The translations under genes and the position numbers were made by a program. From positions 91,393 through 155,392 of IMG/VR virus record IMGVR_UViG_3300033984_000473: DNA of 64,000 nt; one strand, written 5' to 3'. Shown one piece after another: positions 6,804 to 53,310 of the stretch. The notes beneath the pieces are model-generated. The model searched no databases. It was given only the letters and a program-made list of their open reading frames with translations, and was not told the DNA's origin. The stretch's first letter is position 1. Every line of letters starts with the position of its first letter. The stretch comes from a virus.

Positions 6804-7388
6804 TTAAAATGTAAATTTTAATTTATAATTGTTTGATTCCCAGATTTCACTCGTAATGTCTAGTTTATCTTTAAGAATTTCTAACATTTTCTCGTGATTC
6901 CTAGACCGATACAATGTCATTTTACCAGTACAAGTTTCAATAACCCATGGATAATTTTCCTCATTTTTCCTACACTTCAATTTAAAATCGTTCAAACCAT
7001 GGTCTTGGTTTATAATCGTAACCACCAACTGATAATAAACCAAATGATACATATAACCACCTTCACCACAATGTCTATTTTCACATTTAATAATTCTAAA
7101 CTCCATAGTTTCTCTAGGGAAATAAAAACACTCATAGTAAACACCTTCGGTATCTTTATAATAATCTAAAATATCATCATTTATTAATTTAGCACCATAA
7201 TCACTAATGTTGGCTTTGAACCTTTTTTCCATGGTAAAACCCTTACCATCTGCGAAAAATATTTGATTGCGTCTTTCATCGTATCTTTCGAATGTAGTAA
7301 GGGTGTTATCGTAATACTCTTTAAACTCTTTCAAGTCAAAGTTATCGTAATAGGTAGTTTCTTGTCTAACTAACTTCTTCATTGACAT
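6804..7388 (-). CDS. hypothetical protein (194 aa), paralog family A
   Basis: N-terminal RQETTYYDNF motif shared with the 11968..12333 product (RQESTYYEDF). Confidence 0.55.
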   Translation of the reverse strand: MSMKKLVRQETTYYDNFDLKEFKEYYDNTLTTFERYDERRNQIFFADGKGFTMEKRFKANISDYGAKLINDDILDYYKDTEGVYYECFYFPRETMEFRIIKCENRHCGEGGYMYHLVYYQLVVTIINQDHGLNDFKLKCRKNEENYPWVIETCTGKMTLYRSRNHEKMLEILKDKLDITSEIWESNNYKLKFTF

Positions 7389-8964: not shown

Positions 8965-8996
8965 CAAAGGTATGTATAATATTTTAGATATGCAAA
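8965..8996 (-). promoter_or_regulatory. promoter (-33 TTTG / -7 TACCTTTG), 24-nt leader
   Basis: agtacaaaggtatgtataatattttagatatgcaaa. Confidence 0.6.
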
Positions 8997-11971: not shown

Positions 11972-12333
11972 TTTTTTGTTTTTTTATCTAATAAACGACT
12001 ATCAATGCAGACATCTGTTTCTGCGTTAAAAATGCCAATCCAGATAGATTTTTCAGCGGGTCGGTTTACCATTAACCGATAGGTATTATTGGTTTTTGAA
12101 TACGAATATTTATCCCATTGACCGTCTGAATAATGCTTACTTATCAATTTTTTACCTCGATACTTTGATATTCGAGAAAGAATAACAATACCCGAAACAT
12201 CATCCATTACTTCTTGATGTGTTTCTTGCCCCAACTTATTGTATTGAATGTATCTAGTTAAAACACCACCAGTAAATTCACTGAATGTCTTGATTGTAAA
12301 GTCCTCATAGTAAGTGCTTTCTTGCCTAATCAT
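11968..12333 (-). CDS. hypothetical protein (121 aa), paralog family A
   Basis: N-terminus similar to the 6804..7388 product. Confidence 0.5.
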   Translation of the reverse strand: MIRQESTYYEDFTIKTFSEFTGGVLTRYIQYNKLGQETHQEVMDDVSGIVILSRISKYRGKKLISKHYSDGQWDKYSYSKTNNTYRLMVNRPAEKSIWIGIFNAETDVCIDSRLLDKKTKK

Positions 12334-12461
12334 TAAAAAATCTTTTGGCTAATGGAAACCACTTCAATATTCGGCATCGATTCTTGGCTCTCTTGAAACC
12401 TTCTGCTCTCACCTTATCTTTTACCTCTTGTGGTGTTTCCTGTAAGATACGCTGTGCTGTT

Positions 12462-25345: not shown

Positions 25346-25373
25346 TGACTATTTTATTTTTTTAACTATATTT
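25346..25373 (+). promoter_or_regulatory. second plus-strand promoter (TTGAC-19nt-TATATTTG) abutting the HNH start
   Basis: -33 and -7 spacing fits; ATG 3-4 nt downstream (leaderless-type). Confidence 0.45.
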
Positions 25374-25377
25374 GTAT

Positions 25378-25827
25378 ATGACAAAAGAAGAAAAGTGTAA
25401 AATAGTTATAGATAAAGGTTTTACCTACAACCCAGAAACTGGAATTATTTATGGTGTTAGAGGTGGTGTTTTAAAAAATATGGACGGTAGAGGATATTTC
25501 GAAATAAACTTCAATTATGAAAAAAAGAGATATTATTTAAAAGGTCATATCTTTGCATGGTATTGGGTTAATAAGGAATGTGTTGAAGAAATAGACCATA
25601 TAAATAGAATACGTTCAGATAATAGAATCGATAATTTAAGAAGTGTGACTCGTGGTCAAAATATGTGGAACACTAAAGGTAAAGGTTTTTATTATCATAA
25701 AAATATAAAAAAATGGCACGTACAAATAACCGTAAATAATGTTAAAAAACACATTGGTTATTTTGATACTGAAGAAGAAGCTAATAAAATTTATAAACTA
25801 AATAAAAATCTATATCATTTAATTTAA
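25378..25827 (+). mobile_element. HNH homing endonuclease with AP2-like DNA-binding domain (free-standing)
   Basis: EIDHINRIRSDNRIDNLRSVTRGQNMWN (HNH) followed by GFYYHKNIKKWHVQITVNNVKKHIGYFDTEEEANKIY (AP2-like). Only plus-strand gene; own promoters and terminator. Confidence 0.8.
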
Positions 25828-27914: not shown

Positions 27915-27949
27915 GCAAAGGTAGGAATAATATTACATATATCCTAATT
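27915..27949 (-). promoter_or_regulatory. promoter (-33 TTAG / -7 TACCTTTG) for the sigma factor gene
   Basis: Conserved element agtgcaaaggtaggaataatattacatatatcctaatt. Confidence 0.6.
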
Positions 27950-28391
27950 AATCTAAGTTTCTTTCAACTTCTCTTTTTAAGTCTTTCTCTTTCAAACTGT
28001 TGCGTTTGTCGTATAGGTGCTTACCTTTGGCAAGACCAATTTCCACTTTAATGAATCCAGTGTTCGATAGTATAATCTCTAAAGGTACAATAGTCAAGCC
28101 TTTTTGTGAAATACTTTCACGTAATTTGATTATTTCTTTCTTCTTCATAAGAAGTTTTCTATCCCTTAGTGGTTGATGGTTATAGTATTTACCACCTTCT
28201 TTGTGTTCAGTTACGTGCATTCCTTTGATGAAGATTTCATCATTGGTAATAAAACAATAGGCTTCTACTATAGAAACCTTGCTTGATTTTATTGATTTAA
28301 CCTCGGAACCTTGTAATTGAATACCAGCTATGTGCTTTTCGAGTATAATGTATTCAAAATATGCTCGTTTGTTTTTAGTTATTGATTTCAT
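27948..28391 (-). CDS. smpB: SsrA-binding protein SmpB
   Basis: RAYFEYIILEKHIAGIQLQGSEVKSIK...VEAYCFI...KLLMKKKEI...KGLTIVPLEI, typical SmpB sequence. Confidence 0.8.
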   Translation of the reverse strand: MKSITKNKRAYFEYIILEKHIAGIQLQGSEVKSIKSSKVSIVEAYCFITNDEIFIKGMHVTEHKEGGKYYNHQPLRDRKLLMKKKEIIKLRESISQKGLTIVPLEIILSNTGFIKVEIGLAKGKHLYDKRNSLKEKDLKREVERNLD

Positions 28392-28395
28392 TGTA

Positions 28396-28428
28396 CAAAG
28401 GTACGATTAAATTAGTTAATATCCTAGA
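28396..28428 (-). promoter_or_regulatory. promoter for smpB, leaderless type
   Basis: tgtacaaaggtacgattaaattagttaatatcctag; ATG 3 nt after the -7 box. Confidence 0.55.
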
Positions 28429-29119
28429 GTTTTTTCGCTATCGGTATGTTTTTTTCTATTACTAGATACTCACCACTAGTACCTATGGTATCTATAGCAA
28501 TGATTTTATCAGTGATTACTATGTTTTCTTGTGTAGTATGCCCTATTACATATGTAATATCATCAATAGTATCAGCAAATAGCGATGGAATACGTACCCA
28601 TATAGGTGATTGGGTAACATCGTTACCTGTTTGACTCATATTTGGACCGTATGCAAAGCAAAATGAGTCTAAATCAGTAGTAAATTTATCATTTATTTCC
28701 TTTTCTAGGTCATTTGTTTTGATTCCATTGCGTAAACACCATGTTTTTGTTACTCCAGCATGTGTAAAAACATATTTATCATGTTGAAAACACATTTGGA
28801 CTAGTCCAGAATCTATTGCTGGTTGTAAAACTGTGTTAATATCTAATGCTCTGTATGTATTATGACCAGAATATTTCTCTCCAGCACCTTTTAAATAGTG
28901 AAAATCATGGTTACCAAGAAGTAAAACTACTTGTTCCATGTTATTTTTCTTAAATTCTAAGATTTTTGTGAAGTTTTCTATCTGTTGGTCAGTAGTAATA
29001 TCATAATGAGTATCAAAATAGTCACCTATGAAGATAATTTTATCAGCATCCTTATTTTTTTTCACGATTTCTTCCCATAATACACGACCATGTGTATCAC
29101 CTAGTGCTACTATCTTCAT
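28424..29119 (-). CDS. Ser/Thr protein phosphatase-like metallophosphatase (lambda PPase-like)
   Basis: GDTHGR, GDYFD, GNHDFH metal-binding motifs. Confidence 0.8.
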   Translation of the reverse strand: MKIVALGDTHGRVLWEEIVKKNKDADKIIFIGDYFDTHYDITTDQQIENFTKILEFKKNNMEQVVLLLGNHDFHYLKGAGEKYSGHNTYRALDINTVLQPAIDSGLVQMCFQHDKYVFTHAGVTKTWCLRNGIKTNDLEKEINDKFTTDLDSFCFAYGPNMSQTGNDVTQSPIWVRIPSLFADTIDDITYVIGHTTQENIVITDKIIAIDTIGTSGEYLVIEKNIPIAKKL

Positions 29120-29136
29120 ATTCTATTCTTTTTATG

Positions 29137-29235
29137 TACATAGCGAGGGAATCGAACCCCCATCTCCGCAAGCGATTGGTACTGCATCTCACGATGTGCT
29201 CCCATTTCGGCACTCTACCACTGAGCTAGCTACAT
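29137..29235 (-). tRNA. tRNA-like gene, 99 nt, with an expanded central region
   Basis: Minus-strand read: acceptor ATGTAGC/GCTATGT (2 G-U pairs), D-arm GCTC-AGTGGTA-GAGT, T-arm GGGGG-TTCGATT-CCCTC. There are 50 nt between the D- and T-arms, containing GTGC..GCAC and CATC-GTGA-GATG hairpins. No canonical anticodon arm found by eye. Confidence 0.5.
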
Positions 29236-29342
29236 ATTCGGTTATACTATATGGTGGTCTATCACCTTAGCCTTTCGCTAAAACTGTTAATGTGTGCCTC
29301 ACTGGACTACTCAACCAATGTCGCTTTAATAGTATAACCTAG

Positions 29343-29413
29343 AAACTCATACTGGATTCGAACCAGTGTCTGCGGGCTCCACGCCCCCCGTGGTTCCACT
29401 CCACTAATGAATC
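29343..29413 (-). tRNA. tRNA, 71 nt, possibly Pro (UGG)
   Basis: Acceptor GATTCAT/ATGAGTT, D-arm GTGG-AGTGGAA-CCAC, T-arm ACTGG-TTCGAAT-CCAGT. Anticodon stem GGGGG/CCCGC has one mismatch; loop CGTGGAG. Confidence 0.6.
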
Positions 29414-29510
29414 AACTATCACCATGTCGCTCGGCAAAGCTAAACGTAATAGAAAGGATTATAACCGTCTGAAAGTTTGCCGACCTTCATGTTGCTATTC
29501 CCCAATTTTG

Positions 29511-29610
29511 TGCGAGAGGGTGGATTCGAACCACCGACACCTAGTCCCTAGTTGTTCCCTTGTACTTTGGGCTAAAGACCTTAGCGTTTACCAACTTCGC
29601 CACTCTCGCA
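29511..29610 (-). tRNA. tRNA-like gene, ~100 nt (type-II-like length)
   Basis: Perfect acceptor GCGAGAG/CTCTCGC, T-arm GGTGG-TTCGAAT-CCACC, 3-bp D-stem. The ~48-nt central region has no obvious 5-7-5 anticodon arm. Confidence 0.5.
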
Positions 29611-29722
29611 GTTTCTAGTCTTTCCCAGTGTCAACCATTGCAGTATGAAGAGTGCACATCGTCATTGCCAATTACCATAGTTTGTATACAGTGACCATAG
29701 GGCTTAACCGTTGGATTTCTTG

Positions 29723-29796
29723 TGGAAGTAACGGGACTCTAACCCGTGTTCTCGCAGCTACAGCCGCTTTATACTATACTATTGTACTATACTCCC
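29723..29796 (-). tRNA. tRNA-like gene, 74 nt, G3-U70 acceptor, anticodon arm replaced by a 5-bp stem plus tetraloop
   Basis: Acceptor GGGAGTA/TACTTCC (G3.U70), D-arm GTAC-AATAGTATA-GTAT, T-arm ACGGG-TTAGAGT-CCCGT. Central region GCGGC-TGTA-GCTGC; no 7-nt anticodon loop possible. Confidence 0.5.
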
Positions 29797-30034
29797 ATTT
29801 GATTACTACCAGCAACGAGTAACATATATCCGAATCATTAGCATCACGGAGCGTCTTTCTTTGTTACCCTACTCTCGGTGTCGCTAACGCCTCATGTCAA
29901 GTAGTAATCTTCGTCTTTCCGAATTGTCAAGATATTTTCAGACACATTGTCCAAGACTGCTTCTCAATCAGCTAAGCACCTTATACGTCAGAGGATTACG
30001 CTTAGATTTACCTCTCGAACAGGCTTCGTGGTTA

Positions 30035-30232
30035 GAACAGGAATCGAACCTGTGTGTAATTATAGTCGCTTAGTCGACACCATTTGACTGGGACATAAGG
30101 TTTTATTATTATTACGACTTTTATTGGGTTGATGAATGTTACACCTGTTTACACGACTTGTCCACTAACTCATCTCATCGGCAACCCATTACTTAACCTT
30201 GTTAATTAGCAATTCCATTCTGCCATCTAACC
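30035..30232 (-). ncRNA. candidate structured RNA with tRNA-like termini (~200 nt)
   Basis: 3' end has T-arm ACAGG-TTCGATT-CCTGT plus TCTAACC. The complementary GGTTAGA, followed by a D-arm-like GCAG-AATGGAA-TTGC, lies ~180 nt upstream. Could be an intron-containing or otherwise atypical tRNA. Confidence 0.3.
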
Positions 30233-30421
30233 ATTTGGGTGCTACCTTTAGCATCGGTCAACACACCCTCATGTTATTTTTGTTTCTGTATTAGGCTAGG
30301 AAACTCCTTTCTTTGGAAATAAGCCGTACTTTAATATGGTTTAACTTTTAACACCTCTATTTTGCAACCAGTTTCATAACTATCCAAACTGTTCTCCATA
30401 GTGGAGTACCAAAGCGACTTG

Positions 30422-30575
30422 TGGTAAGGATGGGACTCGAACCCACAATCTCTGGCTTATGACCACCAGCGAATACTTTTCTTTCTAATGCTAGGAACCT
30501 TGTTATCGGGTTACGTACCCCTCAAATTAAAAACTAAAATTTCAAACAAAAGAACTTCCAATCATTCTTCCTTAC
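30422..30575 (-). ncRNA. candidate structured RNA with tRNA-like termini (~150 nt)
   Basis: T-arm GTGGG-TTCGAGT-CCCAT plus CCTTACC at the 3' end; 6/7 complementary 5' strand with a D-arm-like AGAA..TTCT hairpin near 30540-30575; hairpin CTGG-N10-CCAG precedes the T-arm. Confidence 0.3.
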
Positions 30576-30749
30576 GAACGGTTTTGTTTAAGAACTTTTC
30601 CTCATAGCACCATGACAATTCATGGGTATTAAAACCGCCAAACTGGGGGTTAGCTATAAGTAAAAGCCATGTGATTAATTAGGACACCATTTCTGGGATA
30701 TCATTCTACTTTCTTTCAACCACATATTTAACTTAGTAGATAAGGCAAG

Positions 30750-30840
30750 ATTTGAACTTGCACCGCCAAGCTAGCCACGCTCGGATTGAGTGTTTAACGA
30801 GCTATCCCCAATTGCTCCAAGCCGTTATGTGTCTACTAAT
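30750..30840 (-). ncRNA. tRNA-like T-arm element; termini unresolved
   Basis: Perfect T-arm GCAAG-TTCAAAT-CTTGC on the minus strand; adjacent GCTCG-N14-CGAGC hairpin; acceptor pairing imperfect. Confidence 0.3.
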
Positions 30841-31235
30841 TTAAGATTCTCCCAGAACCACCACTTCTAATGAAGTCAGCTTAGCTTTTCCACCACTTAT
30901 CTAATTCTTGTCACCTATACAAATCGGTGAGTAGCGTACATGCACGAGAATGGAAGCATCTGCTCATCTCTTTAGGAACTTGTACTCCCTACTATTTACG
31001 GCATAGTTGCCAGTGCTACCTCTTAATTAACATACGTCATTTGTATTTGACTAATAGTGGATAGACATACCAAGTCTAATTGGTTTTGATTACACTCTCA
31101 GCCGCTAAGCTTTGTGTCACTTGCCAGACCTTACTGGCATTATTAGTGGTCCCACTATCTGTTAACCTCGAACAAAAAAAATCATCATGTGCAGAATCCC
31201 ACTGCAAGTGCCAGTTCATAAACTGACTAAATTAG

Positions 31236-31329
31236 CGTGGAGAAGAGAGGATTCGAACCTCTACAAGCCGCTAAGCTATCAGCCATGACCTTCCTTGGGA
31301 CTCGAACCCAACTTCCATCCAAAGCTTCT
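31236..31329 (-). tRNA. tRNA-like gene, 94 nt, with two T-arm-like hairpins
   Basis: Perfect acceptor GGAGAAG/CTTCTCC and T-arm AGAGG-TTCGAAT-CCTCT; an internal second hairpin TTGGG-TTCGAGT-CCCAA. Shares the motif agccgctaagct with a copy near 31100. Confidence 0.5.
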
Positions 31330-31517
31330 CCAGTAATTACACATCCATCAAGATTGGGATTCCGAAGTAAGTAACTTAATCCTACCAGTTAATCATACTC
31401 AACAACCATATTACTTCTTGTAGTAAACGCAATTTCTATACTAGCTTGCACAAAATCTAGTTATTTAACGTGCTTTATAGAATCTACTTGTTTGTCTTTC
31501 TATGCGTAATTATAATA

Positions 31518-31550
31518 CAAAGGTACTACCTTTTTATTTGATATGCAAGT
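31518..31550 (-). promoter_or_regulatory. promoter (-33 CTTG / -7 TACCTTTG) for the SPFH gene
   Basis: Conserved element aatacaaaggtactacctttttatttgatatgcaag. Confidence 0.55.
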
Positions 31551-31559
31551 TTTTTGCAA

Positions 31560-32411
31560 TTAATTTCTATTCAAAAGAATATTTGATGAAGAACCGAATA
31601 CGTTGTTTGAACCGTATGGTGATTTACCCTTTTCTGCCCAAATTCTTTCAGTTTCTGCTCTATATAATTCTAACAACTTAGGTTGTGATAAAATCTCTTT
31701 CGTTTTAGCATCGTAGATAGCCGCTTCATAGTTACCTTTAGCCAAAGCTACTTTCTTCAAAGCTGTTTGTTCTGCTTGTACAGTTTGTGATTTAATCGTA
31801 GCCGTTTCTTGCAATACCGCAATCTTTCTTTCAATCGCTTGTTTATAAGATGGTGGCAATGCCATTTTCAAGATAGCAATATTGGTCAAGGTGAAACCTT
31901 CTTTCTCCAAAGATGCTGATAATGTTTTAGTTACATTTGCTTCATAAACATTTCTATGTTGTAATAAGCTATCAGATGCAAACATAGTAGCGTTGTCTAA
32001 TAATTCTTTTCTAACAATTGTTCTAACTCTCGTATTAATTAAATCTTCCATCCCAACTCTATACTTGATGAATAAATCAGATGCTTTTGCTCTCTGTAAT
32101 TGTAAGTTAACCGCTACATCTAATCCGAATGTTGCTCCATCTGCTGATGTTACATCAATATGTTCATCTGTTGGTGAATCTTCATCTACTGCTGATGTCC
32201 AAACCTTGTGTTGAACTGATGTTGGATACATAAACACGTCTTGTGTTGGTGGGAAATAAAAGATAAAACCAGAAGCCATTTCAATATTCGGAACCCCTTT
32301 GTCATTCCCAATCTGGTCAACGACCAATGCAACTTCTGCTGAGTCTGCTGTTGTACACGATGTAACACTCATTAATAATACCAACGATAATAATCCTAAT
32401 AGTTTTTTCAT
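31560..32411 (-). CDS. SPFH/band-7 domain lipoprotein
   Basis: Signal peptide with lipobox (LLMSVTSC); SPFH-like IAILKMALPPSYKQAIERKIAVLQETA...ALKKVALAKGNYEAAIYDAKTKE. Confidence 0.65.
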   Translation of the reverse strand: MKKLLGLLSLVLLMSVTSCTTADSAEVALVVDQIGNDKGVPNIEMASGFIFYFPPTQDVFMYPTSVQHKVWTSAVDEDSPTDEHIDVTSADGATFGLDVAVNLQLQRAKASDLFIKYRVGMEDLINTRVRTIVRKELLDNATMFASDSLLQHRNVYEANVTKTLSASLEKEGFTLTNIAILKMALPPSYKQAIERKIAVLQETATIKSQTVQAEQTALKKVALAKGNYEAAIYDAKTKEILSQPKLLELYRAETERIWAEKGKSPYGSNNVFGSSSNILLNRN

Positions 32412-32412: not shown

Positions 32413-32652
32413 TTACTTTTTTGTTTTTGTTTTTGTTTTTAAATTTAGTTTGAAATTTGTGAATACTTTTGTTTTAATGATAACAATCACTAACGTTACC
32501 AATCCGATAATTCCAGTAATGTTTAGTAATGTATTTGCTTTGCTTATTAATGGTAGCAAATTCATAATAGCGATTAAGCTTAGAAATATACCTAACGGTA
32601 TCGTGTAATAGTTTTTCATATTGTTTGTTTTTATTATAATACAAAGGTACAA
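32413..32652 (-). CDS. small membrane protein (79 aa)
   Basis: Two hydrophobic helices; KTKTKTKK tail. Confidence 0.4.
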   Translation of the reverse strand: MYLCIIIKTNNMKNYYTIPLGIFLSLIAIMNLLPLISKANTLLNITGIIGLVTLVIVIIKTKVFTNFKLNLKTKTKTKK

Positions 32653-35512: not shown

Positions 35513-36169
35513 TTATTCTGTTTTAGTTAATTCGATTTCTAAAGGCAAATTGCTCATTACATAGTCTAAGTTCAATACACTAGCATTCATAAACACACCG
35601 CCATCTGGGAAATCAACTCTACCATAAGCTTCATGTATGTGTCCGTGAACAAACAAAGCAAGGTTTGTCATTTCTGTTATTTTTTCTAACAAATAAGGAC
35701 AACCTGTTGATGTTCCTCTTTTGGTTAAGTCCAAATAACCTTTGGCTGGACCATGTGTAATAAGAATATTGGTATCCAATGGAATCATATCCCAGTGAGC
35801 ACAAATTTCAGTACCCTTACGATTAAATGCCCATGAATAGAACCATGGCTGAACTGGACTTCCCCAAATCTTAAACCCTTCAATCTCAACACCACTATCA
35901 TTCAAGTAGATGATGTTAGGGTATTTCGCTAACATAGCTTCTATCTCATACTCTGGTGCTTGCTCAAAGAAGAAATCGTGATTACCAGCAATAAGAATCT
36001 TGTACTTATATGGTAACTCATTATACCATGCTAAGAAAACTTCTATCTCTTGTTTGGTACCTCTACCAGAAACATCACCCGCATGGATTATACAATCACC
36101 CCCAGTCAAATACTTACTAGGGATGTGTTCGTGTTTTGAATGCGTATCGCTGATACATGTAATATTCAT
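35513..36169 (-). CDS. metallophosphoesterase (calcineurin-like, YfcE-type)
   Basis: ISDTHSKH, HAGDVSGRG, AGNHD motifs. Confidence 0.8.
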   Translation of the reverse strand: MNITCISDTHSKHEHIPSKYLTGGDCIIHAGDVSGRGTKQEIEVFLAWYNELPYKYKILIAGNHDFFFEQAPEYEIEAMLAKYPNIIYLNDSGVEIEGFKIWGSPVQPWFYSWAFNRKGTEICAHWDMIPLDTNILITHGPAKGYLDLTKRGTSTGCPYLLEKITEMTNLALFVHGHIHEAYGRVDFPDGGVFMNASVLNLDYVMSNLPLEIELTKTE

Positions 36170-38459: not shown

Positions 38460-40379
38460 TTATAGATTGATTAATGATAAATTAATGTTCTTTTTCTCAA
38501 TATCTACACTAGATACAACCACATGAACCATATCACCAAGTCTTAATTTAGAACCAGTATTGTATCCTTTTACACAGTAATTAGCCATGTCAGCCGAATA
38601 AACATCACCACCAATATCAGACAATTTGATAAGTCCTTCACACTTGTTTTCCAGGATTTCAACAAACACACCATACTCAGTAACCGAACTAATGATACCT
38701 TCAAACACTTTACCAATGTTATCACTCATGTAAATACATTGCATGTACTTGATTGAATCTCTTTCAGCTTTTTGTGCTTTCTTTTCTCTCTCAGATAAGT
38801 GAAGACATCTAGTTTCAAGCTTCTCTAACTTAGGCATAGTTGTTTTGTTCTCATCCAAATACAAACCTAACAACCTATGAACGATTACATCTGGGTAACG
38901 TCTGATTGGACTTGTAAAGTGTGAGTAGTCTTTAAACCCAAGACCATAGTGACCAATGTTTTTGGTTGTATAGTTTGCTTTCTGCATAGTTCTAACTACC
39001 AGATTATCAATCATATCCGACTCAGCAGTACCTCTTGAATCAACTAGCAACTGGTTAAGTGTTTTTGTTGTTTCTTCTGGGCTAGTTGTTCTAATCTCAT
39101 AACCGAATTGTTTAATGAACTCTTTAAGACTATCTAACTTAGTTTCGTTAGGTTTGTCGTGAGCTCTGTTAACATTTGGCAGTGCTCTTTTGTTAATGTA
39201 TTGAGCAACGTGTCTGTTAGCCAATAACATATATTCCTCGATAAGCTTGTTAGCATCTTTGGCAACCTTGAAGATGATACCTGTTGGTTTGTTGTTCTCG
39301 TCTAACTTGAACTTAACTTCTTGTTTATCAAAAGATATAGAACCCTTAGACAAACGAACCTTACGCATTTTTTGTGCTACTCTATTCAAATGTAAAACAG
39401 CGTACTCCAATTTACTAACTACTTTATCAGTACCACCTTTTGTTTCAATTATTGTTTGAGCTTCTTCATAAGTAAGTCTACAATCAGAGTTGATTACAGT
39501 TCTACCAAACCATTCTTCTAACACATGTCCATTATGGTCCATTTTAAAGACAGCTGAGAAGCAAAGCTTATCTTCGTTAGGTCTTAACGAACATAGTCCG
39601 TTAGATAAGTTCTCTGGAAGCATAGGGACACATCTATCTACTAGGTAGACACTTGTTCCTCTAGCATACGCTTCTTTGTCTAATTCGGTATCTGGTCGTA
39701 AGTAATGTGATACATCGGCAATGTGAACACCCAAAAACAATTCACCGTTTACCCATTCAACACTCAAAGCATCATCAAAATCTTTTGCATCAGCTGGGTC
39801 GATGGTAAATGTAAGTACATCACGCATATCTCTACGCTTATCAATTTCAGCTTGTGTAATCTCCGTTGATATTGCTCTGGCTTCTGCCAACACATCTTCT
39901 TCAAAGTCGTATGGTAAACCATATTCTTCAAGGATGCTATGGATTTCAGTTTCATGTTCACCAGAATTACCTAGAATTCTAATTACTTCACCATTAGGGT
40001 TCTTTGCGTTGTCTTTCCATTCAGTTAACTTAACAATAACCTTTTGACCTTCAGTCGCATTCATTGTTTTATTTAAAGGAACAAAGAAATCAATTGGAAG
40101 CTTGCTGCTATCTGGTACAAAGAAAGCAAACTTTTCACTCAATTGGAGTACACCAACGAATTCGGTTCTGAATCTCTCTACGATTTCAACAACTTCACCT
40201 TCTAAAGCTCTACCATTTCCAGTAATAACTTTTATTTTTACAGTATCTAAGTGTAACGCTTTGTTGGTGTTACTTTTGCTTAGATAAATGTCTTTTGGTA
40301 AATCTTGACTTACCAAGTAAGCGGAGCCGCTAGCATTCATGCTAACTTTTCCTTCTAATATATCATCTATTTTAATCAT
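38460..40379 (-). CDS. rnr: RNase R / RNase II family 3'-5' exoribonuclease
   Basis: RNB-domain signatures GTSVYLVDRCVPMLPE, LCSLRPNEDKLCFS, HYGLGFKDYSHFTSPIRRYPDVIVHR; C-terminal S1-like domain. Confidence 0.85.
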   Translation of the reverse strand: MIKIDDILEGKVSMNASGSAYLVSQDLPKDIYLSKSNTNKALHLDTVKIKVITGNGRALEGEVVEIVERFRTEFVGVLQLSEKFAFFVPDSSKLPIDFFVPLNKTMNATEGQKVIVKLTEWKDNAKNPNGEVIRILGNSGEHETEIHSILEEYGLPYDFEEDVLAEARAISTEITQAEIDKRRDMRDVLTFTIDPADAKDFDDALSVEWVNGELFLGVHIADVSHYLRPDTELDKEAYARGTSVYLVDRCVPMLPENLSNGLCSLRPNEDKLCFSAVFKMDHNGHVLEEWFGRTVINSDCRLTYEEAQTIIETKGGTDKVVSKLEYAVLHLNRVAQKMRKVRLSKGSISFDKQEVKFKLDENNKPTGIIFKVAKDANKLIEEYMLLANRHVAQYINKRALPNVNRAHDKPNETKLDSLKEFIKQFGYEIRTTSPEETTKTLNQLLVDSRGTAESDMIDNLVVRTMQKANYTTKNIGHYGLGFKDYSHFTSPIRRYPDVIVHRLLGLYLDENKTTMPKLEKLETRCLHLSEREKKAQKAERDSIKYMQCIYMSDNIGKVFEGIISSVTEYGVFVEILENKCEGLIKLSDIGGDVYSADMANYCVKGYNTGSKLRLGDMVHVVVSSVDIEKKNINLSLINL

Positions 40380-40970: not shown

Positions 40971-41486
40971 TTAATGCCTATCAGCTGGCACTACATTTAT
41001 CTTGAAAGTTTTAATTCTTCCGCTTGAAATTAGCTTATCACCAAATGCTTTGAATATTGGAATATGTTCCAATCTATCATCCCATAGTTCAATCTCAGTA
41101 ACCTGTGGGTACTTATGTAGTAAAGATTCAATTGTTTTCATCTTAGCCACTTCTGTTGCACCACCTCTGTTGAAATGGTATTCATCAAACTCTAGGTTTT
41201 TGCTATCTAAGATTTCTTTAACTAGGTCAGTAAGTAGAACCATACGACCAGTAAGCATAACCATAACAGTTGATTGGTCTTGTTTTTCTACATTGTAAGC
41301 ATCAATGACCATTGGTACACTTGGCATGTCAAATATTTTCATATCTAAGCTTAGTGGTCTACCCCACCATCCTGGAAAAGGCCAATCTCTACCTGTCTGT
41401 TCTTTGTAATGTTTCTTACCAAATTCTGGTAATGGTGTATCAACCAGTGTTCCGTCAAAATCGAATATCGATAATTTTGTTTTCAT
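40971..41486 (-). CDS. HAD-superfamily hydrolase
   Basis: Motif I SIFDFDGTLVD. Confidence 0.6.
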   Translation of the reverse strand: MKTKLSIFDFDGTLVDTPLPEFGKKHYKEQTGRDWPFPGWWGRPLSLDMKIFDMPSVPMVIDAYNVEKQDQSTVMVMLTGRMVLLTDLVKEILDSKNLEFDEYHFNRGGATEVAKMKTIESLLHKYPQVTEIELWDDRLEHIPIFKAFGDKLISSGRIKTFKINVVPADRH

Positions 41487-41895: not shown

Positions 41896-42375
41896 TTAAT
41901 TATTTTTGAATAATCCTAATATTCTATAATAAATATTCTCTATAACTTCAATAATTTTATTTTTTATCTTTTCATACATAGTTTCTTGTTTGTATTGAAA
42001 ATCCATATAAAACAATTGACCAACTGGTGCTGACATAGGCTGAACTGGTACCAAATCCATGGCTATGGTTTGTGCGAACACTCTTCGAACCATTGGAAAC
42101 GCTACGTTTTCAAATAAATTTTCAAGGGTTTGCCAGAAGAATTCTAAATCAATATCTGGTTTTATTTTGGTAGACCAAAGATGTATATAAAGCTTAGCTT
42201 CTTCTTCTTCAATGTTAAATACAGTGATTAACTCATTGGTTAGCTTGGTGCCGCAATGTGGTGTTTTAAATTTCCTATCATCGGAAAATGAGTATATTCC
42301 ATCGTTACCAACTTCGCTAGTATCAACGTAATAATTTTTTGACAAATAATCGTATATGAGTTTTTCCATATACAA
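41896..42375 (-). CDS. hypothetical protein (159 aa)
   Basis: ORF in gene train. Confidence 0.5.
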   Translation of the reverse strand: MYMEKLIYDYLSKNYYVDTSEVGNDGIYSFSDDRKFKTPHCGTKLTNELITVFNIEEEEAKLYIHLWSTKIKPDIDLEFFWQTLENLFENVAFPMVRRVFAQTIAMDLVPVQPMSAPVGQLFYMDFQYKQETMYEKIKNKIIEVIENIYYRILGLFKNN

Positions 42376-42405: not shown

Positions 42406-42900
42406 TTATTTAACAACTTTCGGCTTGATTACCGCAAACATTTTTTTACCTTCTAACTTAGGCATAGCTTCTGCTGACCCAAATTCTTCAACAGCAACAA
42501 TCATTTTAAGTATTTGTTGTTGACCAATATCAATATGTTGCATTTGACGACCTCTAAACTGAAGGCTAATCTTAACCCTGTGACCTTTTTTAAGGAACTC
42601 AACCATGTGTTTGATTCGGTATTCCAAATCATTATCGGTTGTGTTTGGTCCAAGCTTGATTTCTTTTACATCTAATCCTTTGTTCTTAGGCTTTTTGCTT
42701 AATTCGTATATGAACTTTTCATAGTTCATTATCTTACAAATTACTGGAACTGTCTTATCGTTGATAAGAACCAAATCCATGTTTCTAGACTCAGCGATTT
42801 GTAAGGCTGCTGATAACGCCATAACACCACCTTCTTCAGCGACACGCACTTCTTTTGCGATGATTTCTGAATTAAGCTTATGCTGTTTCTTTTTGTTCAT
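42406..42900 (-). CDS. infC: translation initiation factor IF-3
   Basis: N-domain IAKEVRVAEEGGVMALSAALQIAESRNMDLVLI; C-domain KEIKLGPNTTDNDLEYRIKHMVEFLKKGHRVKISLQFRGRQMQHIDIGQQQL. Confidence 0.8.
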   Translation of the reverse strand: MNKKKQHKLNSEIIAKEVRVAEEGGVMALSAALQIAESRNMDLVLINDKTVPVICKIMNYEKFIYELSKKPKNKGLDVKEIKLGPNTTDNDLEYRIKHMVEFLKKGHRVKISLQFRGRQMQHIDIGQQQILKMIVAVEEFGSAEAMPKLEGKKMFAVIKPKVVK

Positions 42901-47753: not shown

Positions 47754-49349
47754 TTAAAATGTTGTAAACTCTCCGTTAATGAAGTTTATGTGTTGTGACC
47801 TTCCATCGTTATGGATAATCACATGTGATTGTAACCATGTGCTGGCCCCTTTATTATACCCAACTCTTAATTTGGTTGATGTTCCAACTGCCAGTGCTCC
47901 GTCTTTTCTTCCTGGACTATGGTAGTGACCTACGATAATCTTTGTGTTTAATTTACGGAACTGTAACAATGAACCACGACTTCCATTCGAACCAATATCG
48001 CCATGTTGTCCTAACTCCCAATCTTTAACCCTATATGTGGCACTTCTACCAAGAGTAATGAACTTAGGGAATTTCTCGTTGATGATACATGGGATAACAC
48101 CTTTTACATTGTAAGGGTCATTACCATATTGTTCTAACAACATATCAGACATTTTCATGTAAAGTCTTGAGTTCTTGTATGTTGGTTGTTTTTTCCAATC
48201 TTCATTCTTTAACCAACGGTCTAAGAAATCATCATGATTACTTCTAACAATCACAACGTTATCGAACTTAGCAAATGCATCCAATCCATCTAACATCAAA
48301 TCAATCTCTTTACCTAAGTCATTGGTTCCAGCAACCTCTTTACCATATTGGATAAAAGGGTCTTTCATTTCATGGTGGCTAATAGAATTTCCATCAAAAA
48401 CGTCATGAAGAATCACGTGTTTTGGTTTTAACGAATCTAACAATCCCATTGTTGAATCCAAAACTTCTTGGTCATGGTGTCCGTAGTGAATATCACCTAG
48501 AACAGCAGCAGCGATAGTGTTTAAACCACTAATACTTCCACCTTCAACTCTATAATATAAATCACTAAAGTTACCAGTTTTATCATCGGCAGTTACCTGT
48601 CTAACAAAGAATGTTTCATCATCTTTTATTTCAACAATAACAAAACCAAACGTGTGGTGAAACTCACCAGTCTTACCAGACTTAGAATCAGTATAGTTTT
48701 TCTTGGTTACTGAACCTGTGGTAAGCATAATCTTAGGTTTGTTACCCTCTAGTACTGGTATCATTTCCATTTGTACCTTTGGACTACCAAAAATAGATGA
48801 ATTAACACCACTTAATGCTTGTAATCCAGTCATAGGGTTAACCGCAGTAGCTTGTATCTTGATATCTGATAGTATAGAAACGTACTTATGTATGTCATGT
48901 CTATTGGCATCTAGGTATTTTACCACTTCATCAGCCCAAAACTCTTCATTTTCTTGTTCATTTGACCATATACTAGTCGGATTCTTATACCTACCAGCAA
49001 TTACATGGACATCTGCATTGATATATTCAGCATAGGCTTCAATATTCTTAAGGAAACCCTTATGTACTGGTGTGTTATTCTGTGCCCAAGTGATGATAAA
49101 TCGTTTTTTAGTACCATCATGTACCTTAGCTTTAGCTTTTACGTACTGTTCTGGTTCGATTTCAGTCTTTTCTTTGAAATTTAATTTTTTAAACCATTTT
49201 CTTACAGTTCTTTCTGAAAGATTAAACTCATTACCTAATTTTATTGCTAATCGTTCAACAGTTAAATTATTTTCTAACCTATTATCATATTCTAATTTAA
49301 AACGTGAAATTATTTCATCGGTTAAATCTTTAAATTTAAATTTACTCAT
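47754..49349 (-). CDS. calcineurin-like metallophosphoesterase with N-terminal HTH-like domain
   Basis: GDIHYGHHD, HDVFDGN, IVRSNHDDF metal-binding motifs; N-terminal LSERTVRKWFKK. Confidence 0.7.
   Translation of the reverse strand: MSKFKFKDLTDEIISRFKLEYDNRLENNLTVERLAIKLGNEFNLSERTVRKWFKKLNFKEKTEIEPEQYVKAKAKVHDGTKKRFIITWAQNNTPVHKGFLKNIEAYAEYINADVHVIAGRYKNPTSIWSNEQENEEFWADEVVKYLDANRHDIHKYVSILSDIKIQATAVNPMTGLQALSGVNSSIFGSPKVQMEMIPVLEGNKPKIMLTTGSVTKKNYTDSKSGKTGEFHHTFGFVIVEIKDDETFFVRQVTADDKTGNFSDLYYRVEGGSISGLNTIAAAVLGDIHYGHHDQEVLDSTMGLLDSLKPKHVILHDVFDGNSISHHEMKDPFIQYGKEVAGTNDLGKEIDLMLDGLDAFAKFDNVVIVRSNHDDFLDRWLKNEDWKKQPTYKNSRLYMKMSDMLLEQYGNDPYNVKGVIPCIINEKFPKFITLGRSATYRVKDWELGQHGDIGSNGSRGSLLQFRKLNTKIIVGHYHSPGRKDGALAVGTSTKLRVGYNKGASTWLQSHVIIHNDGRSQHINFINGEFTTF
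49190..49222. repeat. direct repeat copy 1 (ttaaaccattttcttacNgttctttctga)
   Basis: 31/32 identical to the copy at ~50288-50320; the two copies bracket the endonuclease-like gene. Confidence 0.6.
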
Positions 49350-50241
49350 TCATTTTGATTTTTAGTATTTTCGTTATTTTATCTATTTTTTCATTATATT
49401 TAATAATAATTAATTTTATTTTATTATTTTTACAATATTCTTTTTTAATTATATCTGTTTTATTTTGTTCTTTAAAACGTTTTTCACCGCCAAAGTATTC
49501 AATAGCTTTATAATGTTGAATACCGTTAAATTCAATACATGTATTATAATCTGGTAAATAAAAATCAAATGGTAAAACATTTTTATTTTTACAGTCATCA
49601 AATTTATGTTGAGCTATGAATTTAATAGAATATTTGTTTAATAAATCTCTAATTTTATTTTCACCTTTAGATTCTTTACAAAAAGGACAATTTTGGCCCT
49701 TTAAATGATTTTGTGGTGTTTGTTTAAATTCACTATGAATTGGACAAATAACCACTACCTTTTTATCAAAACCTAAATAATCAACTAATGAATAATCAAA
49801 TTTATCCCCATGAACTAATTTAGCTTTTTGAATAAATTCTAATGTTTTTGTTTTTCTTTTTACAAAACTACATAATTCACAATCAGAACCTTTTAAATGA
49901 TTCGATGGTGTTTGTTCAAACCCACCATGAGTTGGACAAATTATTTTAACTTTAGTATCATAATTAACATAATCAACCAAAGAATAATCAAATTTATCTC
50001 CATGAATTAATTTACTTTTTTTAATAAATTCATTAATAGATAACTTTTGTTTATTTTGTGAACATTTAGAACATCCATTACCACTTAAATGCCCACTAGC
50101 CCTTTGTTCAAACTCACCATGAGCTGGACAAATTATTTTTACTTTAAACTTACTTTCAATATAATCAATCAATGAATAATCATATGTATCACCATGAACT
50201 AATTTAGCTTTTTCAATAAATTTTAAATTTTTATCTATCAT
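49342..50241 (-). mobile_element. putative homing endonuclease: three zinc-ribbon repeats plus C-terminal Vsr/DUF559-like PD-(D/E)xK nuclease
   Basis: Threefold repeat KAKLVHGDKFDYSLVDY...KVKIICPxHGxFEQxPxNHLKGxxCxxC; C-terminal LPFDFYLPDYNTCIEFNGIQHY...IKLIIIKY; flanked by a duplicated 32-nt segment. Confidence 0.55.
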
Positions 50242-50508: not shown

Positions 50509-51279
50509 TTACAATTTAGGTATAAGATTTATTAAAAAATCTCTATCACTAGTGAATATAGGTGTTTCTAAGGCTACCCAGTTACGTCTAACAGCAGCTG
50601 CTTCACCACTATAGTCAATATCTGCTACTCTTTTGATAACTACCCCACGTTTATACTTGGTTTTATAGTCATTCCAATTGATACCCTTCTCATTAAACAA
50701 CATTTCCTGTTTATCACTACCAGATTTACCCTCTAATAGTTTGTGTGAAAAGTTAGCAGATGCGGCCATACTAATACTATTTCTAGTACAGTCTTGCTGT
50801 CTGAATATCATAGCGTTAACCATTTCATCAACCGTAGGTACTTGGAATACACGAGCATCAAAGAAAGCTAATTTGTTTAAGCTTTCAGCTAACCCTTCCA
50901 TACCTTGCATCGTTGACCTTAGATGCCTTAACTGGTTGAACTTAGCAGTTGCCAAAGAGGCAGCAATACTTGTCATCTTTTGTACGCTGTAATCAAACCA
51001 CGCACTAGTTTCAAGTGTGTCATAATCGCACAACACCACGCTGATTTCGTCAGATTGTGTGTAAGCAAACTTTGCACCTTGAATGTTCTCACATAAGAAG
51101 ATTGCGGTTGCATCCATGTCATCGCTAAACCCATCATCGAATGGTTTGTTTAAGTTTTTAGTGAATTTAGAAAATCCTTTACCATCAAGTCTAATGATTG
51201 TAATTGTTCTTCTATTCAAAAAAGTTTTGGTTCTGTTTTCGTAGAATTCTTTCATTCTATCACCTAAAGATAAAGTCAT
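50509..51279 (-). CDS. Thg1-like protein (tRNA-His guanylyltransferase family, 3'-5' nucleotidyl transferase)
   Basis: TIIRLDGKGFSKFTK, FAYTQSDEISVVL and GINWNDYKTKYKRGVV align with Thg1 VVRIDGKKFHEFSK, AFGESDEYSF and GINYNN..FKKGS. Confidence 0.7.
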   Translation of the reverse strand: MTLSLGDRMKEFYENRTKTFLNRRTITIIRLDGKGFSKFTKNLNKPFDDGFSDDMDATAIFLCENIQGAKFAYTQSDEISVVLCDYDTLETSAWFDYSVQKMTSIAASLATAKFNQLRHLRSTMQGMEGLAESLNKLAFFDARVFQVPTVDEMVNAMIFRQQDCTRNSISMAASANFSHKLLEGKSGSDKQEMLFNEKGINWNDYKTKYKRGVVIKRVADIDYSGEAAAVRRNWVALETPIFTSDRDFLINLIPKL

Positions 51280-51904: not shown

Positions 51905-52089
51905 GAGTCATAATCGGTTATATCCTTTTCAATTCCATAGTCTTCAAATCTTACCTTTACGTTAAGACCGATACCAGTATAAGAAATTAGATAAGAAACC
52001 TTACCAAGCTTTCCATGTAAAAAATTTACACTTTCTTCTAGCTTTGCAAGTGTTTCCACTTCTTTTTCGTTTAAGTTAAAGTCAGCCAT
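51898..52089 (-). CDS. small hypothetical protein (63 aa)
   Basis: Short ORF tightly coupled to neighbours. Confidence 0.4.
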   Translation of the reverse strand: MADFNLNEKEVETLAKLEESVNFLHGKLGKVSYLISYTGIGLNVKVRFEDYGIEKDITDYDSW

Positions 52090-53081
52090 TAAAATCTTTC
52101 TTTTTTAAGCCCTTCGTAGCTTGTTTTACTATTGATTGCACTAACAGCTAAACCGATTTGTTTTGCCATGCTAATAACATTTAGTTTATCATTACCAAAG
52201 ATACCATTGTAATCTGTTGGTTTTCTTAATGAATCACTAATAACCAATTCAGTTAGTACTGAATTTTCAATACGAGCCAAAGCTGGTCCAGAACAGATAC
52301 CATGACTGATGATTGCTCTTACACTCTTGGCACCAGCTTCCATAATAACTTCAGCGGCTTTGCAAAGTGTTCCAGCAGTATCAACCATATCATCTAAGAT
52401 GATTACGTTCTTACCACTAACATCACCAATGATAACCATATCATCAATAACGTTGGCTTGTTTACGAGTTTTATCCAACATAACATAATTGATTGAAATG
52501 TCATGGTAGTTAGCCAATTGGTCTTTCATACGTTTAACACGTTTACCAGAACCAGCATCTGGGCCACACAAGATTGTATCTTCATCATATATCGAAGCGA
52601 TGTACGAATCAAAAACATTTTTACCTTCTAAGTGTGTAACTGGGATATTGAAAAACCCTTGAATTTGGTCAGCATGTAAATCAAATGTGATAACACCTGT
52701 TGCTCCACGATGCTCAATCATTTCAACCATAACCTTGGCACCGATAGGTCCACGTGATTGGTCTTTCTTGTCTTGACGAGCGTATGGGAAGTAAGGTAAG
52801 ATTGGAATAATCTCTCTAGCGGCTGCACGTTTGGCGGCATCTATCGCTAGATTTAACTTTATGATTTCATCTGAATTATTAGGGCTAGACAAGATATAAA
52901 CTCGCTTGCCTCTAATTGATGATTCAAAATCCACACATAACTCACCATCAGAAAATTTCTGACTGTTGATTATGTCTAGCTTTACTTTCTCTTTTATCTT
53001 TGAATTGTTATTGATAAAATCAATAACACTATTGGCTAAATCTTCTCTACCATCTAACGCCACTAATACTGAATCATTCAT
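52089..53081 (-). CDS. prs: ribose-phosphate pyrophosphokinase (PRPP synthetase)
   Basis: HADQIQGFF, PYARQDKK and PRPP-binding DDMVDTAGT motifs; start moved to MNDSVLV past the promoter. Confidence 0.9.
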   Translation of the reverse strand: MNDSVLVALDGREDLANSVIDFINNNSKIKEKVKLDIINSQKFSDGELCVDFESSIRGKRVYILSSPNNSDEIIKLNLAIDAAKRAAAREIIPILPYFPYARQDKKDQSRGPIGAKVMVEMIEHRGATGVITFDLHADQIQGFFNIPVTHLEGKNVFDSYIASIYDEDTILCGPDAGSGKRVKRMKDQLANYHDISINYVMLDKTRKQANVIDDMVIIGDVSGKNVIILDDMVDTAGTLCKAAEVIMEAGAKSVRAIISHGICSGPALARIENSVLTELVISDSLRKPTDYNGIFGNDKLNVISMAKQIGLAVSAINSKTSYEGLKKERF

Positions 53082-53098
53082 AGTTATATATTTTTTAA

Positions 53099-53130
53099 CA
53101 AAGGTACATAAAAATTTTTGAATAAACAAA
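53099..53130 (-). promoter_or_regulatory. promoter (-33 TTTG / -7 TACCTTTG) for prs
   Basis: taacaaaggtacataaaaatttttgaataaacaaatg. Confidence 0.6.
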
Positions 53131-53136
53131 TGTTTA

Positions 53137-53310
53137 TTATTCTTTATTACTTTTTCTATTAAATAAATAAATAACACCAGCAATCAAAGATGCCGTTGCC
53201 AAGTATTTCAATACACTAACGAATAAAAATATTCCAAAGAAAATACCTTGTAAGACGAACAATACTAGTAATACTGCTATAAAAATTCCGATTAATTTTA
53301 CTGTTTTCAT
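53137..53310 (-). CDS. small membrane protein
   Basis: Hydrophobic; start trimmed to MKTVK. Confidence 0.4.
   Translation of the reverse strand: MKTVKLIGIFIAVLLVLFVLQGIFFGIFLFVSVLKYLATASLIAGVIYLFNRKSNKE

Follow-up and report, generated by a model that had tools for sequence, protein, structure and literature searches.

What is encoded by a 2.4-kb block of viral DNA that holds no open reading frame (ORF) and in which, by eye, one transfer RNA (tRNA)-like element follows another? The block occupies positions 29120-31500 of a 64,000-nucleotide (nt) stretch, hereafter the window, which corresponds to positions 91,393 to 155,392 of IMG/VR virus record IMGVR_UViG_3300033984_000473. An earlier reading of the letters alone (the original prediction) had noted that its minus-strand elements carry T-arms and that several lack a canonical anticodon arm. 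Codon supply is the usual explanation for phage tRNA genes, and escape from anticodon nucleases a more recent one. The array described here represents a third state of such genes, in which the half of the molecule that serves processing and charging is kept and the half that serves decoding is replaced, conserved across a clade of lake jumbo phages. The array is new to the literature (our searches found no description of such arrays) and is made up of tRNA-derived or tRNA-like RNAs together with at least one wholly new structured RNA, U7.

The window was searched for T-arm hairpins with a pattern consisting of a 5-base-pair (bp) stem and the loop TT[CA][GA]ANN. Nine matches were obtained, every one within 29161-31311 on the minus strand; shuffled versions of the window yielded 0.7 matches over both strands combined, with a maximum of 4. 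T-arms followed by a 7-bp acceptor pairing were confined to 29137-31331 when both strands of the window (128 kb) were scanned, and the same test on 1 Mb of shuffled related loci gave no match. In total, nine T-arm hairpins and eight acceptor/T-arm modules (E1 to E8) are present on the minus strand between 29137 and 31331 and none elsewhere in the 64 kb, in agreement with the predicted number of at least eight elements, the coordinates of which were right to 1-2 nt. The block is also as free of ORFs as had been claimed: the longest stop-free runs are 54 codons on the minus strand and 91 codons on the plus strand. Its G+C content is 39-44% versus 29-37% for the flanks.

Dedicated tRNA finders recognize only part of the array. 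ARAGORN, at default settings, calls just one gene across the window, the minus-strand tRNA-Pro(UGG) at 29342-29413, which is E2. The curated Rfam thresholds yield three tRNA matches, at 29511-29609 (E3), 29137-29235 (E1) and 29723-29796 (E4); three more, 29343-29413 (40.4 bits), 31238-31331 (25.8 bits) and 30422-30482 (17.1 bits), appear when the block is searched permissively. Against the tRNA model RF00005, with a threshold of 29 bits, E1-E4 score 40-42 bits, E8 25.8 and E6 17.1, and E5 and E7 do not match. Three of the four elements that reach the threshold do so by skipping or absorbing a non-standard anticodon region: E1 and E3 pass although 39-41 nt stand in place of the 11-17 nt of the model, and for E4 the model skips its 17-nt anticodon region as a local end. 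The covariance models do not call ordinary tRNAs throughout, and the claim that most elements lack a canonical anticodon arm is upheld. A 7-bp acceptor on a 5-bp T stem with a T-loop is found in eight of eight modules (in E6 six of the seven acceptor pairs are formed), and the D-arm is kept in six of eight. A full canonical anticodon arm (5-bp stem, 7-nt loop, U33 and a purine at 37) was not found; its geometry is right in E2 only. An Rfam search of 28900-31700 at E≤10 returned nothing beyond tRNA and transfer-messenger RNA (tmRNA) save chance-level matches to small nucleolar RNA and plastid families; the covariance models for GOLLD, ROOL, Y RNA/YrlA, ribonuclease (RNase) P RNA and 6S RNA gave no match in this region at the same cutoff.

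Read along the minus strand, the order of the features is promoter, E8, U7, E7, E6, S56, E5, E4, E3, E2, E1 and a calcineurin-like phosphoesterase gene. Folding by eye had correctly described several of them: the 71-nt tRNA with anticodon UGG at 29343-29413 (E2), the 99-nt element at 29137-29235 (E1) with 50 nt between its D- and T-arms and a GUGA-capped hairpin, the 74-nt element at 29723-29796 (E4) with a G3:U70 acceptor pair and a central 5-bp stem with a 4-nt loop (which reads UGUA), and a 94-nt element with two T-arm-like hairpins, which lies at 31238-31331 (E8). The 3' halves noticed near 30050 and 30440 find their 5' strands 205 and 156 nt upstream, with a D-arm after each; they belong to the 205-nt E5 (30028-30232) and the 155-nt E6 (30421-30576). 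Beyond the original list are the modules at 29511-29609 (E3; 99 nt, 42.4 bits) and 30736-30903 (E7; 167 nt). Also missed had been the 270-nt U7 (30907-31176), the initiator signature of E6, the single promoter and the probable co-transcription with the phosphoesterase gene. S56 is a conserved spacer RNA (30233-30420) between E6 and E5.

Homologous arrays were located via the SmpB gene (IMG/VR loci L051 and L052), and further arrays via homologues of the phosphoesterase (contigs L064-L066, L069-L072, L078-L080, L082 and L083), which gave homologous arrays in about nine phage contigs, some of them partial and two nearly identical. A blastn search of the block against the 50,697 phage records of INPHARED gave no match, the phosphoesterase protein alone as query retrieved nothing from IMG/VR, and exact-pattern scans of DNA in viral, metagenome and genome collections gave no further contigs and no lead to a host or prophage. 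The 41 viral loci found through the SPFH gene of the window share only that gene with it and were of no use for alignment. Jumbo phages with this gene do commonly carry tRNA-like modules with 40-110-nt centres beside ordinary tRNAs with canonical loops, and the oddities are therefore specific to these modules. U7-E7 opens nearly all homologous arrays, and E1 stands directly before the phosphoesterase gene in nearly all (L052, L064, L065, L069, L071 and L078); in L082/L083 an ORF lies between the array and the phosphoesterase gene and no E1 homologue was detected. The middle of the array is variable: E2 is present in four phages and E4 in four arrays, E8 shifts position, and some arrays have extra modules.

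The elements are conserved well above silent sites. Identities between the window and five relatives are 96-99% for E3, 88-91% for E4, 81-83% for E7, 77-81% for E1, 70-75% for U7, 65-78% for E6, 66-67% for E5 and 59-64% for S56; in the genes for the phosphoesterase, SmpB and the sigma factor, third codon positions are 45-64% identical. Comparison of the sequences thus demonstrates purifying selection on the eight E elements as tRNA-derived RNAs, and we hold with high confidence that the structures are real and selected. For U7 with E7, in an alignment of nine sequences (A12) with 114 pairs in 22 helices, 98.9% of the cells are paired and 23 pairs change on both sides, versus 8.4±2.0 in shuffled alignments (0 of 500 reach the observed value) and 0-4 in slid controls.

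E2 is near-canonical and departs from the standard tRNA by G33 and one mismatch in the anticodon stem. Outside the loop it is near-identical across the window, L064, L051, L052 and L078; the loop itself reads CGUGGAG in the window and L064, AUUUUAG in L051, CGUUGAG in L052 and CG-GGAG in L078, where the loop region forms a 6-bp stem with a tetraloop. The spacer between E2 and E1 holds a hairpin on the minus strand (29267-29281, UUAGC-GAAAG-GCUAA) that reads CAAUG-AAAAC-AUUG in L051 and L052, with the pairing retained. E4 (Rfam tRNA, 40 bits) is of the alanine type, with G3:U70 and A73. Its D- and T-arms are normal (the D stem has 4 bp), and in every orthologue the anticodon arm is a 5-bp stem with four nucleotides in its loop. 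In the E4 alignment (A4) G3:U70 is kept, one stem pair has changed from G-C to A-U, and the loop is UGUA, AGUU or UGUU. The tertiary pair between D-loop and T-loop, G19:C56, has become U19:A56 in the window, a double change that is hard to explain unless the L-shape matters. The tmRNA-type G3:U70 acceptor is thus found in E4, in all orthologues, and not in E5, E6, E7 or E8.

Larger domains take the place of the decoding half in E1, E3 and E5. E1 (Rfam 41.5 bits) has normal acceptor, D- and T-arms. The intervening nucleotides include the hairpin CAUC-GUGA-GAUG, and the centre can be drawn as a bulged 5-bp stem leading to a UGG/CCA helix, a 5x5 loop and a hairpin with a GNRA cap, either GUGA or GGAA. 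Among eight sequences (alignment A13), six pairs have changed on both sides, all of them in the acceptor, D and T stems, and the covariation score is 0.246 versus 0.140 in shuffles (0 of 500 reach it). The 45-nt centre is invariant in sequence and is the most conserved part of E1. In E3 a 38-nt irregular rod, predicted to be a 9-bp helix with an inner hairpin, substitutes for the anticodon and variable arms, and the Rfam tRNA match accommodates 41 nt where the model has 17. The D stem (3 bp) and D-loop of both E3 and E5 are typical of bacterial tRNA-Leu, and the Leu-type D-arm GCG-AARUUGGUARA-CGC is common to E3, the long E5 orthologues and many long modules of related phages; the D-arm of E5 in the window itself has diverged from this motif.

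E5 combines a Leu-type (class II D-arm) chassis with a structured centre of 150 nt. Long-form orthologues are present in L065, L069 and L078, and their stems covary. The chassis, recognized by the acceptor GAUUAGA and the T-arm ACAGG, carries centres of 21, 26, 63 or 105 nt in relatives; the form with the 26-nt centre, 76 nt long, is an 8-bp stem capped by a UUCG tetraloop. One array, that of L078, has three paralogues of the chassis (6182-6383, 6544-6619 and 6981-7093) with centres of 152, 26 and 63 nt, an identical T-arm and a nearly identical acceptor stem, which suggests that a duplication was followed by replacement of the centre. Insertion of mobile elements of the miniature inverted-repeat type was considered as a source of the long hairpins and dropped, as no repeated copies of an insert were found among the loci with nhmmer. 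The adjacent S56 is recovered by nhmmer in L065, L069, L071, L072 and L078 with E-values of 1e-14 to 4e-16.

E6 resembles an initiator tRNA. The 1:72 pair is mismatched in six of six orthologues (CxC, AxC or CxA), with the other six acceptor pairs covarying; the anticodon CAU is invariant in the same six, and A73 is present. The sequences, read directly, have A11:U24 in E6 (again in six of six orthologues) versus Y11:R24 in E1, E2 and E4, and the unpaired 1:72, CAU and purine 11:pyrimidine 24 expected of an initiator are therefore all found. Of the three G:C pairs at 29-31:39-41 that belong to the same set two are G:C, with G-U or U-G in the remaining position. E6 also differs from the standard 76-77-nt initiator cloverleaf in that a long hairpin of about 80 nt is inserted after the D stem, ahead of the anticodon stem. 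At position 33, five of six orthologues have G or A; residues other than U33 are otherwise known only from some eukaryotic initiator tRNAs.

E7 has an acceptor stem, which is 8 bp long and contains A3-U70, and a T-arm. It lacks a D stem and has a closed 65-nt three-way junction instead. An invariant hairpin, CCGAGC-GUGGCUA-GCUUGG (30766-30784; 6-bp stem, 7-nt loop), ends 4 nt before the T-arm, and compensatory changes are found in the acceptor stem, the T stem and the internal helices 17, 18 and 20. U7, which precedes E7, is a multi-helix RNA with a terminal helix that closes it. It does not resemble a tRNA, and Rfam gives no match at E≤10. E8 has a 7-bp acceptor, a 3-bp D-like stem, a first hairpin with the T-loop-like UUCGAGU and a true T-arm. 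The first hairpin has a 5-bp stem, a 7-nt loop and U33; however, five of seven sequences have a pyrimidine at position 37, and the loop reads as a T-loop. In the E8 alignment (A8, seven sequences) five pairs show compensatory changes, and the loop triplet is CGA in six and GGA in one. The variable region of 32 nt holds the hairpin AGCU-UAGC-GGCU, which recurs in U7 and accounts for the 12-mer AGCCGCTAAGCT. The exact recurrence reported for this motif holds (exactly two copies, at 31100 and 31266, where 0.04 are expected); as a sign of a large internal duplication it does not, since what U7 and the E8 variable region have in common is this small hairpin with the loop UAGC. Another short motif, AGUAC(AA), stands in predicted loops of E3 (29560-29568), U7 (~30990-30996) and E1 (~29180-29187). 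These loops contain the self-complementary GUAC, so that loop-loop contacts are conceivable, and the repeat is not above chance. Kissing GUAC loops and a CsrA-type sponge of GGA motifs were both dropped because the motif counts were not above chance.

The array is preceded by a -7 box, TACCTTTG (31518-31525, minus strand), and a -33-like CTTG (31546-31549). Copies of TACCTTTG number 35 on the minus strand and 5 on the plus strand, nearly all just upstream of gene starts, and ATT[T/A]G lies 21-25 nt upstream of TACCTTTG(TA) copies; further minus-strand examples are at 2082-2089, 8965-8972 and 32642-32649. The copy before the array is kept in L051 and L052. A sigma-70 consensus was rejected as the promoter, as the scan matched no more than chance. 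Promoters of the Bacteroidota have TTTG at -33 and TAnnTTTG at -7, and from this layout the phage host is probably a member of that phylum. No copy of TACCTTTG was found on the minus strand between 31518 and 28403, the next ones being those before the SmpB gene (28396-28403) and before the sigma factor gene (27916-27923), and there is no internal minus-strand terminator from the array to the phosphoesterase gene. The latter (28424-29119, minus strand; Pfam Metallophos) starts 17 nt from the end of E1. On account of the single promoter, the missing internal copy and terminator and the short distance to E1, the array and the phosphoesterase gene would form one transcription unit, driven from a single phage promoter. 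In PHROG the phosphoesterase matches NinI/lambda-phosphatase-like proteins as well as an 'RNA ligase' family, in the phosphoesterase part of the latter; its NCBIfam matches are weak and of the ApaH/YfcE type only, and no relative with a solved structure is detectable by sequence.

What could such RNAs do? The reading we put forward, and which we regard as an even call, is that the array encodes tRNA mimics that are processed and probably charged, do not decode normally and belong to a module for the takeover of translation and RNA repair. It follows from which features are kept and which are lost across the chassis. Host RNase P and a 3' endonuclease would cut at each tRNA-like module, as in the processing of transcripts in T4 and in the tRNA punctuation of mitochondria, and would thereby free the individual RNAs, U7, the spacers and the phosphoesterase mRNA, after which CCA would be added. 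The chassis appear to be chosen so that charging identity survives without normal decoding. Alanyl-, leucyl- and seryl-tRNA synthetases ignore the anticodon, and the modules without an anticodon loop look like Ala (E4), Leu-like (E3, E5) and possibly Ser-like (E8) frames. The modules with a fixed triplet look Met/initiator-like (E6, CAU) or Pro-like (E1, GGG; E2, UGG), and the synthetases that match these frames do read the anticodon. Partners may be found in the neighbouring IF3, SmpB, RNase R, Thg1-like enzyme and RNA-repair phosphoesterases. The mimics might act as stand-ins that host anticodon nucleases cannot cleave, or as decoys for tRNA-directed defence proteins, and E6 might be a phage initiator that works with the phage IF3. 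The tRNA-like decoys or processing handles offered in the original prediction are compatible with this evidence.

Several points weigh against a set of charged mimics. We infer every functional step, and the argument from charging identity is built on eight modules. E3 and E5 are assigned to Leu and E8 to Ser by resemblance only, the discriminator of E5 is U in L065 and L069, and E7 has no recognizable identity set. The centres of E1 and E3 never vary in the sample, their folds being drawn from prediction. E4 occurs in only four of about nine arrays and is therefore dispensable. The alignments hold 4-9 fairly close sequences, and phylogenetic inertia inflates the apparent conservation. Moreover, G or A at position 33 and the large extra arms could mean that the translational function has been lost and that the RNAs have another role. 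More tentatively still, and to our mind doubtful, the mimics could amount to a 'shadow' pool of RNAs that are chargeable without normal decoding: an Ala acceptor without an anticodon, a Leu-type chassis with swappable domains, and an initiator that has an 80-nt extra arm and works with the phage IF3. If true, this would mean a partly orthogonal initiation or decoys that neutralize tRNA-directed host immunity, with U7 as a further new functional RNA class freed from the same precursor.

Other explanations have to be set against the tRNA mimics. The one that comes closest holds that the modules are nothing but processing punctuation or scaffold, cut sites for RNase P and RNase Z and stabilizing handles for a real cargo (U7, S56, the central domains and the phosphoesterase mRNA), in the manner of plant t-elements and mascRNA. 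It is very likely true in part: the array has one promoter and no terminator inside it, the 17-nt distance between E1 and the start codon of the phosphoesterase is kept in relatives, the spacers and U7 are conserved and structured, and one chassis carries interchangeable centres. As the whole explanation we consider it unlikely, because a bare handle needs neither G3:U70, nor a conserved 1:72 mismatch with an invariant CAU, nor R11:Y24, and because the 'empty' chassis (E4, the 76-nt form of E5) are still strongly conserved. We find it improbable, and more so than pure punctuation, that the modules are intron-containing tRNAs whose inserts are removed by an endonuclease and a ligase or by self-splicing to give ordinary decoding tRNAs. 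In its intron mode at default stringency ARAGORN reads E1 as tRNA(GGG), in which 28 nt are inserted after position 37, and E3 as tRNA(UUA), both with the insert at the classical 37/38 site; E6 and E7 retain an anticodon-arm-like hairpin 4-5 nt before the T-arm, and phosphoesterases of the RNA end-healing type and a Thg1-like enzyme are encoded nearby. However, E4 has neither an insert nor an anticodon loop, and the short allele of the E5 chassis does not give a tRNA but a UUCG-capped stem, which makes simple intron-containing tRNAs unlikely. The supposed intron of E1 is conserved at least as well as its 'exons', being the most conserved part of the element, and the spliced stem would retain a bulged G; the 'splice sites' of E3 lie within a continuous 9-bp helix, and splicing would leave only a 4-bp stem. 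A check by eye for a bulge-helix-bulge (bulges of 3 nt on either side of a 4-bp helix), in itself weak, found just a 3-bp helix between the bulge and the 5x5 loop of E1. No Intron_gpI match was obtained at E≤10, the inserts of 23-150 nt being too short for group I, and a scan of ~58 window proteins found neither an RNA ligase nor a splicing endonuclease. The suggestion of intron-containing tRNAs in the original prediction is weakened accordingly.

The same prediction had considered a tmRNA-like RNA, and a tmRNA, divergent or reduced, that works with the phage SmpB could be sought either in U7+E7 or in E4, the latter as a tag-less mini-tmRNA of the jakobid-mitochondrial type. In favour, the window has genes for SmpB and RNase R, a canonical tmRNA follows the same SPFH gene in a related phage, E4 has G3:U70, A73 and no anticodon, and E7 has no D stem. 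Nevertheless, neither ARAGORN nor Rfam calls a tmRNA in the window (no tmRNA score in the block exceeds 10.7 bits, versus a threshold of 47), and G3:U70 is confined to E4. E7 has A3-U70, and the tag frame that ARAGORN proposes for it at low threshold is lost in L051, as read by eye. No frame ending in AA lies inside any module; the only such frame is in the E6-E5 spacer. E4, for its part, keeps a 4-bp D stem and is missing from five of about nine arrays that still have SmpB. U7+E7 as a tmRNA was rejected on the A3-U70 pair, the absence of a conserved tag and the score, and a tmRNA of either form is very unlikely in our view. Decay is the least plausible of all, to the point of being negligible: most elements lack decoding features and the element content varies among relatives, as would be seen for pseudogenes of a once-normal phage tRNA cluster, but the elements are far more conserved than silent sites, compensatory changes uphold old and new helices alike, and the promoter is conserved. 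Conservation and compensatory change together thus all but rule out decay.

Among known systems the tRNA cluster of T4, presumably processed by RNase P, is closest in layout. There too, small stable RNAs (rnaC and rnaD, species 1 and 2) are co-oriented among tRNAs; we know of no function for them, decades after their description. T4 has eight canonical tRNAs and two odd RNAs, whereas the present array has one near-canonical tRNA, seven rebuilt ones and one 270-nt RNA, and marks of initiator-like and Ala-like identity are not described for T4. As there is no sequence homology, the likeness is one of analogy and not of shared ancestry. In T4 rnaC (L084, 1409-1547) an acceptor-like 3' strand comes after a perfect T-arm, CCGGG-UUCGAAU-CCCGG; through pairing of this strand with 7 nt inside rnaC, a 92-nt tRNA-like module can form. 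The tRNA-like domain of tmRNA, including tag-less mitochondrial forms, likewise combines acceptor and T-arm with another helix in the position of the anticodon arm, and the alanine identity of E4 and the SmpB gene 1.3 kb from it add to the likeness. Unlike tmRNA, the array has no tag frame and no ring of pseudoknots, E4 has a normal D stem, and E7 lacks G3:U70. Non-decoding tRNA-like structures that cut out or stabilize adjacent RNAs are familiar from plant mitochondrial t-elements, mascRNA and the tRNA-microRNA units of gammaherpesvirus 68; those are single eukaryotic handles, whereas here an eight-member array with identity marks is found in a bacterial virus. GOLLD and ROOL are large structured RNAs of phages and prophages, often near tRNA genes and some from lake metagenomes; they measure 580-800 nt, compared with 270 nt for U7, which has no match to them in Rfam at E≤10.

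Allo-tRNAs have an 8/4 or 9/3 arrangement of acceptor and T stem and keep their anticodon loops (Mukai et al. 2017, PMC5389517; PMC7609411). All modules of the array fit 7/5, and none was found with 8/4 or 9/3. Polycistrons of allo-tRNAs and irregular tRNAs are similar in that variable anticodons are placed on Ser/Ala-type, anticodon-independent chassis, with possible five-stem junctions (PMC5389517; PMC7609411); in contrast to them, several modules here have no anticodon loop, and the array is phage-borne. Phage tRNAs with mutated anticodon loops evade anticodon nucleases (van den Berg et al. 2023, PMC10264068). Those cases, a milder form of what is seen here, concern point changes in otherwise normal tRNAs, whereas the changes here are tetraloops, domains of 28-150 nt and extra arms; a conflict over tRNA cleavage is shared in so far as the window encodes enzymes of the RNA-repair type.

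If the RNAs are charged, they would be natural aminoacyl carriers without an anticodon and, for E6, an initiator tRNA with a large extra arm. They would then bear on the extent of tRNA remodelling that the ribosome, IF3, synthetases and defence nucleases accept, and would offer natural tRNA scaffolds. U7 is a new large structured RNA with strong support from covariation. For annotation, the array implies that standard tRNA finders miss most of such elements, as one of the eight was called.

The genes around the array are nearly all on the minus strand, the window having a single exception. Besides a full-length SmpB with its C-terminal tail (27948-28391), it encodes RNase R (38460-40379), a HAD domain of the 'Swiss-army-knife' RNA-repair type (HAD_SAK_1; 40971-41486), IF3 (42406-42900) and a Thg1-like 3'-5' polymerase (50509-51279); phosphoesterases total three, with a further calcineurin-like one at 35513-36169. 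Genes for translation and RNA repair are thus densely represented. A second group of genes is related to nicotinamide adenine dinucleotide (NAD): PRPP synthetase (52089-53183), Sir2 (54310-55062), NAMPT (59097-60722), NMNAT/Nudix (62576-63580) and ADP-ribosylglycohydrolase (1328-2104). The set resembles an NAD+ reconstitution pathway, which possibly counters defences that deplete NAD.

The SPFH/band-7 lipoprotein gene (31560-32411) is conserved with 70-90% protein identity across 41 viral contigs (L001-L041). For seven other window proteins (an AAA ATPase, the sigma factor, SmpB, the phosphoesterase and three small ORFs) no relative was found within 10 kb of the SPFH gene in these contigs, and by this distribution the gene is unusually conserved and mobile. 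One of the jumbo phages that share it, L041, has a canonical tmRNA (11973-12303) with a tag ending in GLAA; directly after it, at 12324-12434, lies a 111-nt Leu-type tRNA-like module with a 60-nt centre. A 159-residue ORF of the window (41896-42375) matches just the first ~50 positions of the profile of the T4 major capsid protein gp23 (E 4e-12) and may be a small protein that borrows the N-terminal targeting segment of the capsid protein. The sole convincing plus-strand gene, at 25372-25827 and thus opposed to its neighbours, looks by eye like a homing endonuclease of the HNH/AP2 type, and a second endonuclease-like protein (DUF4379/DUF723) is encoded at 49342-50241.

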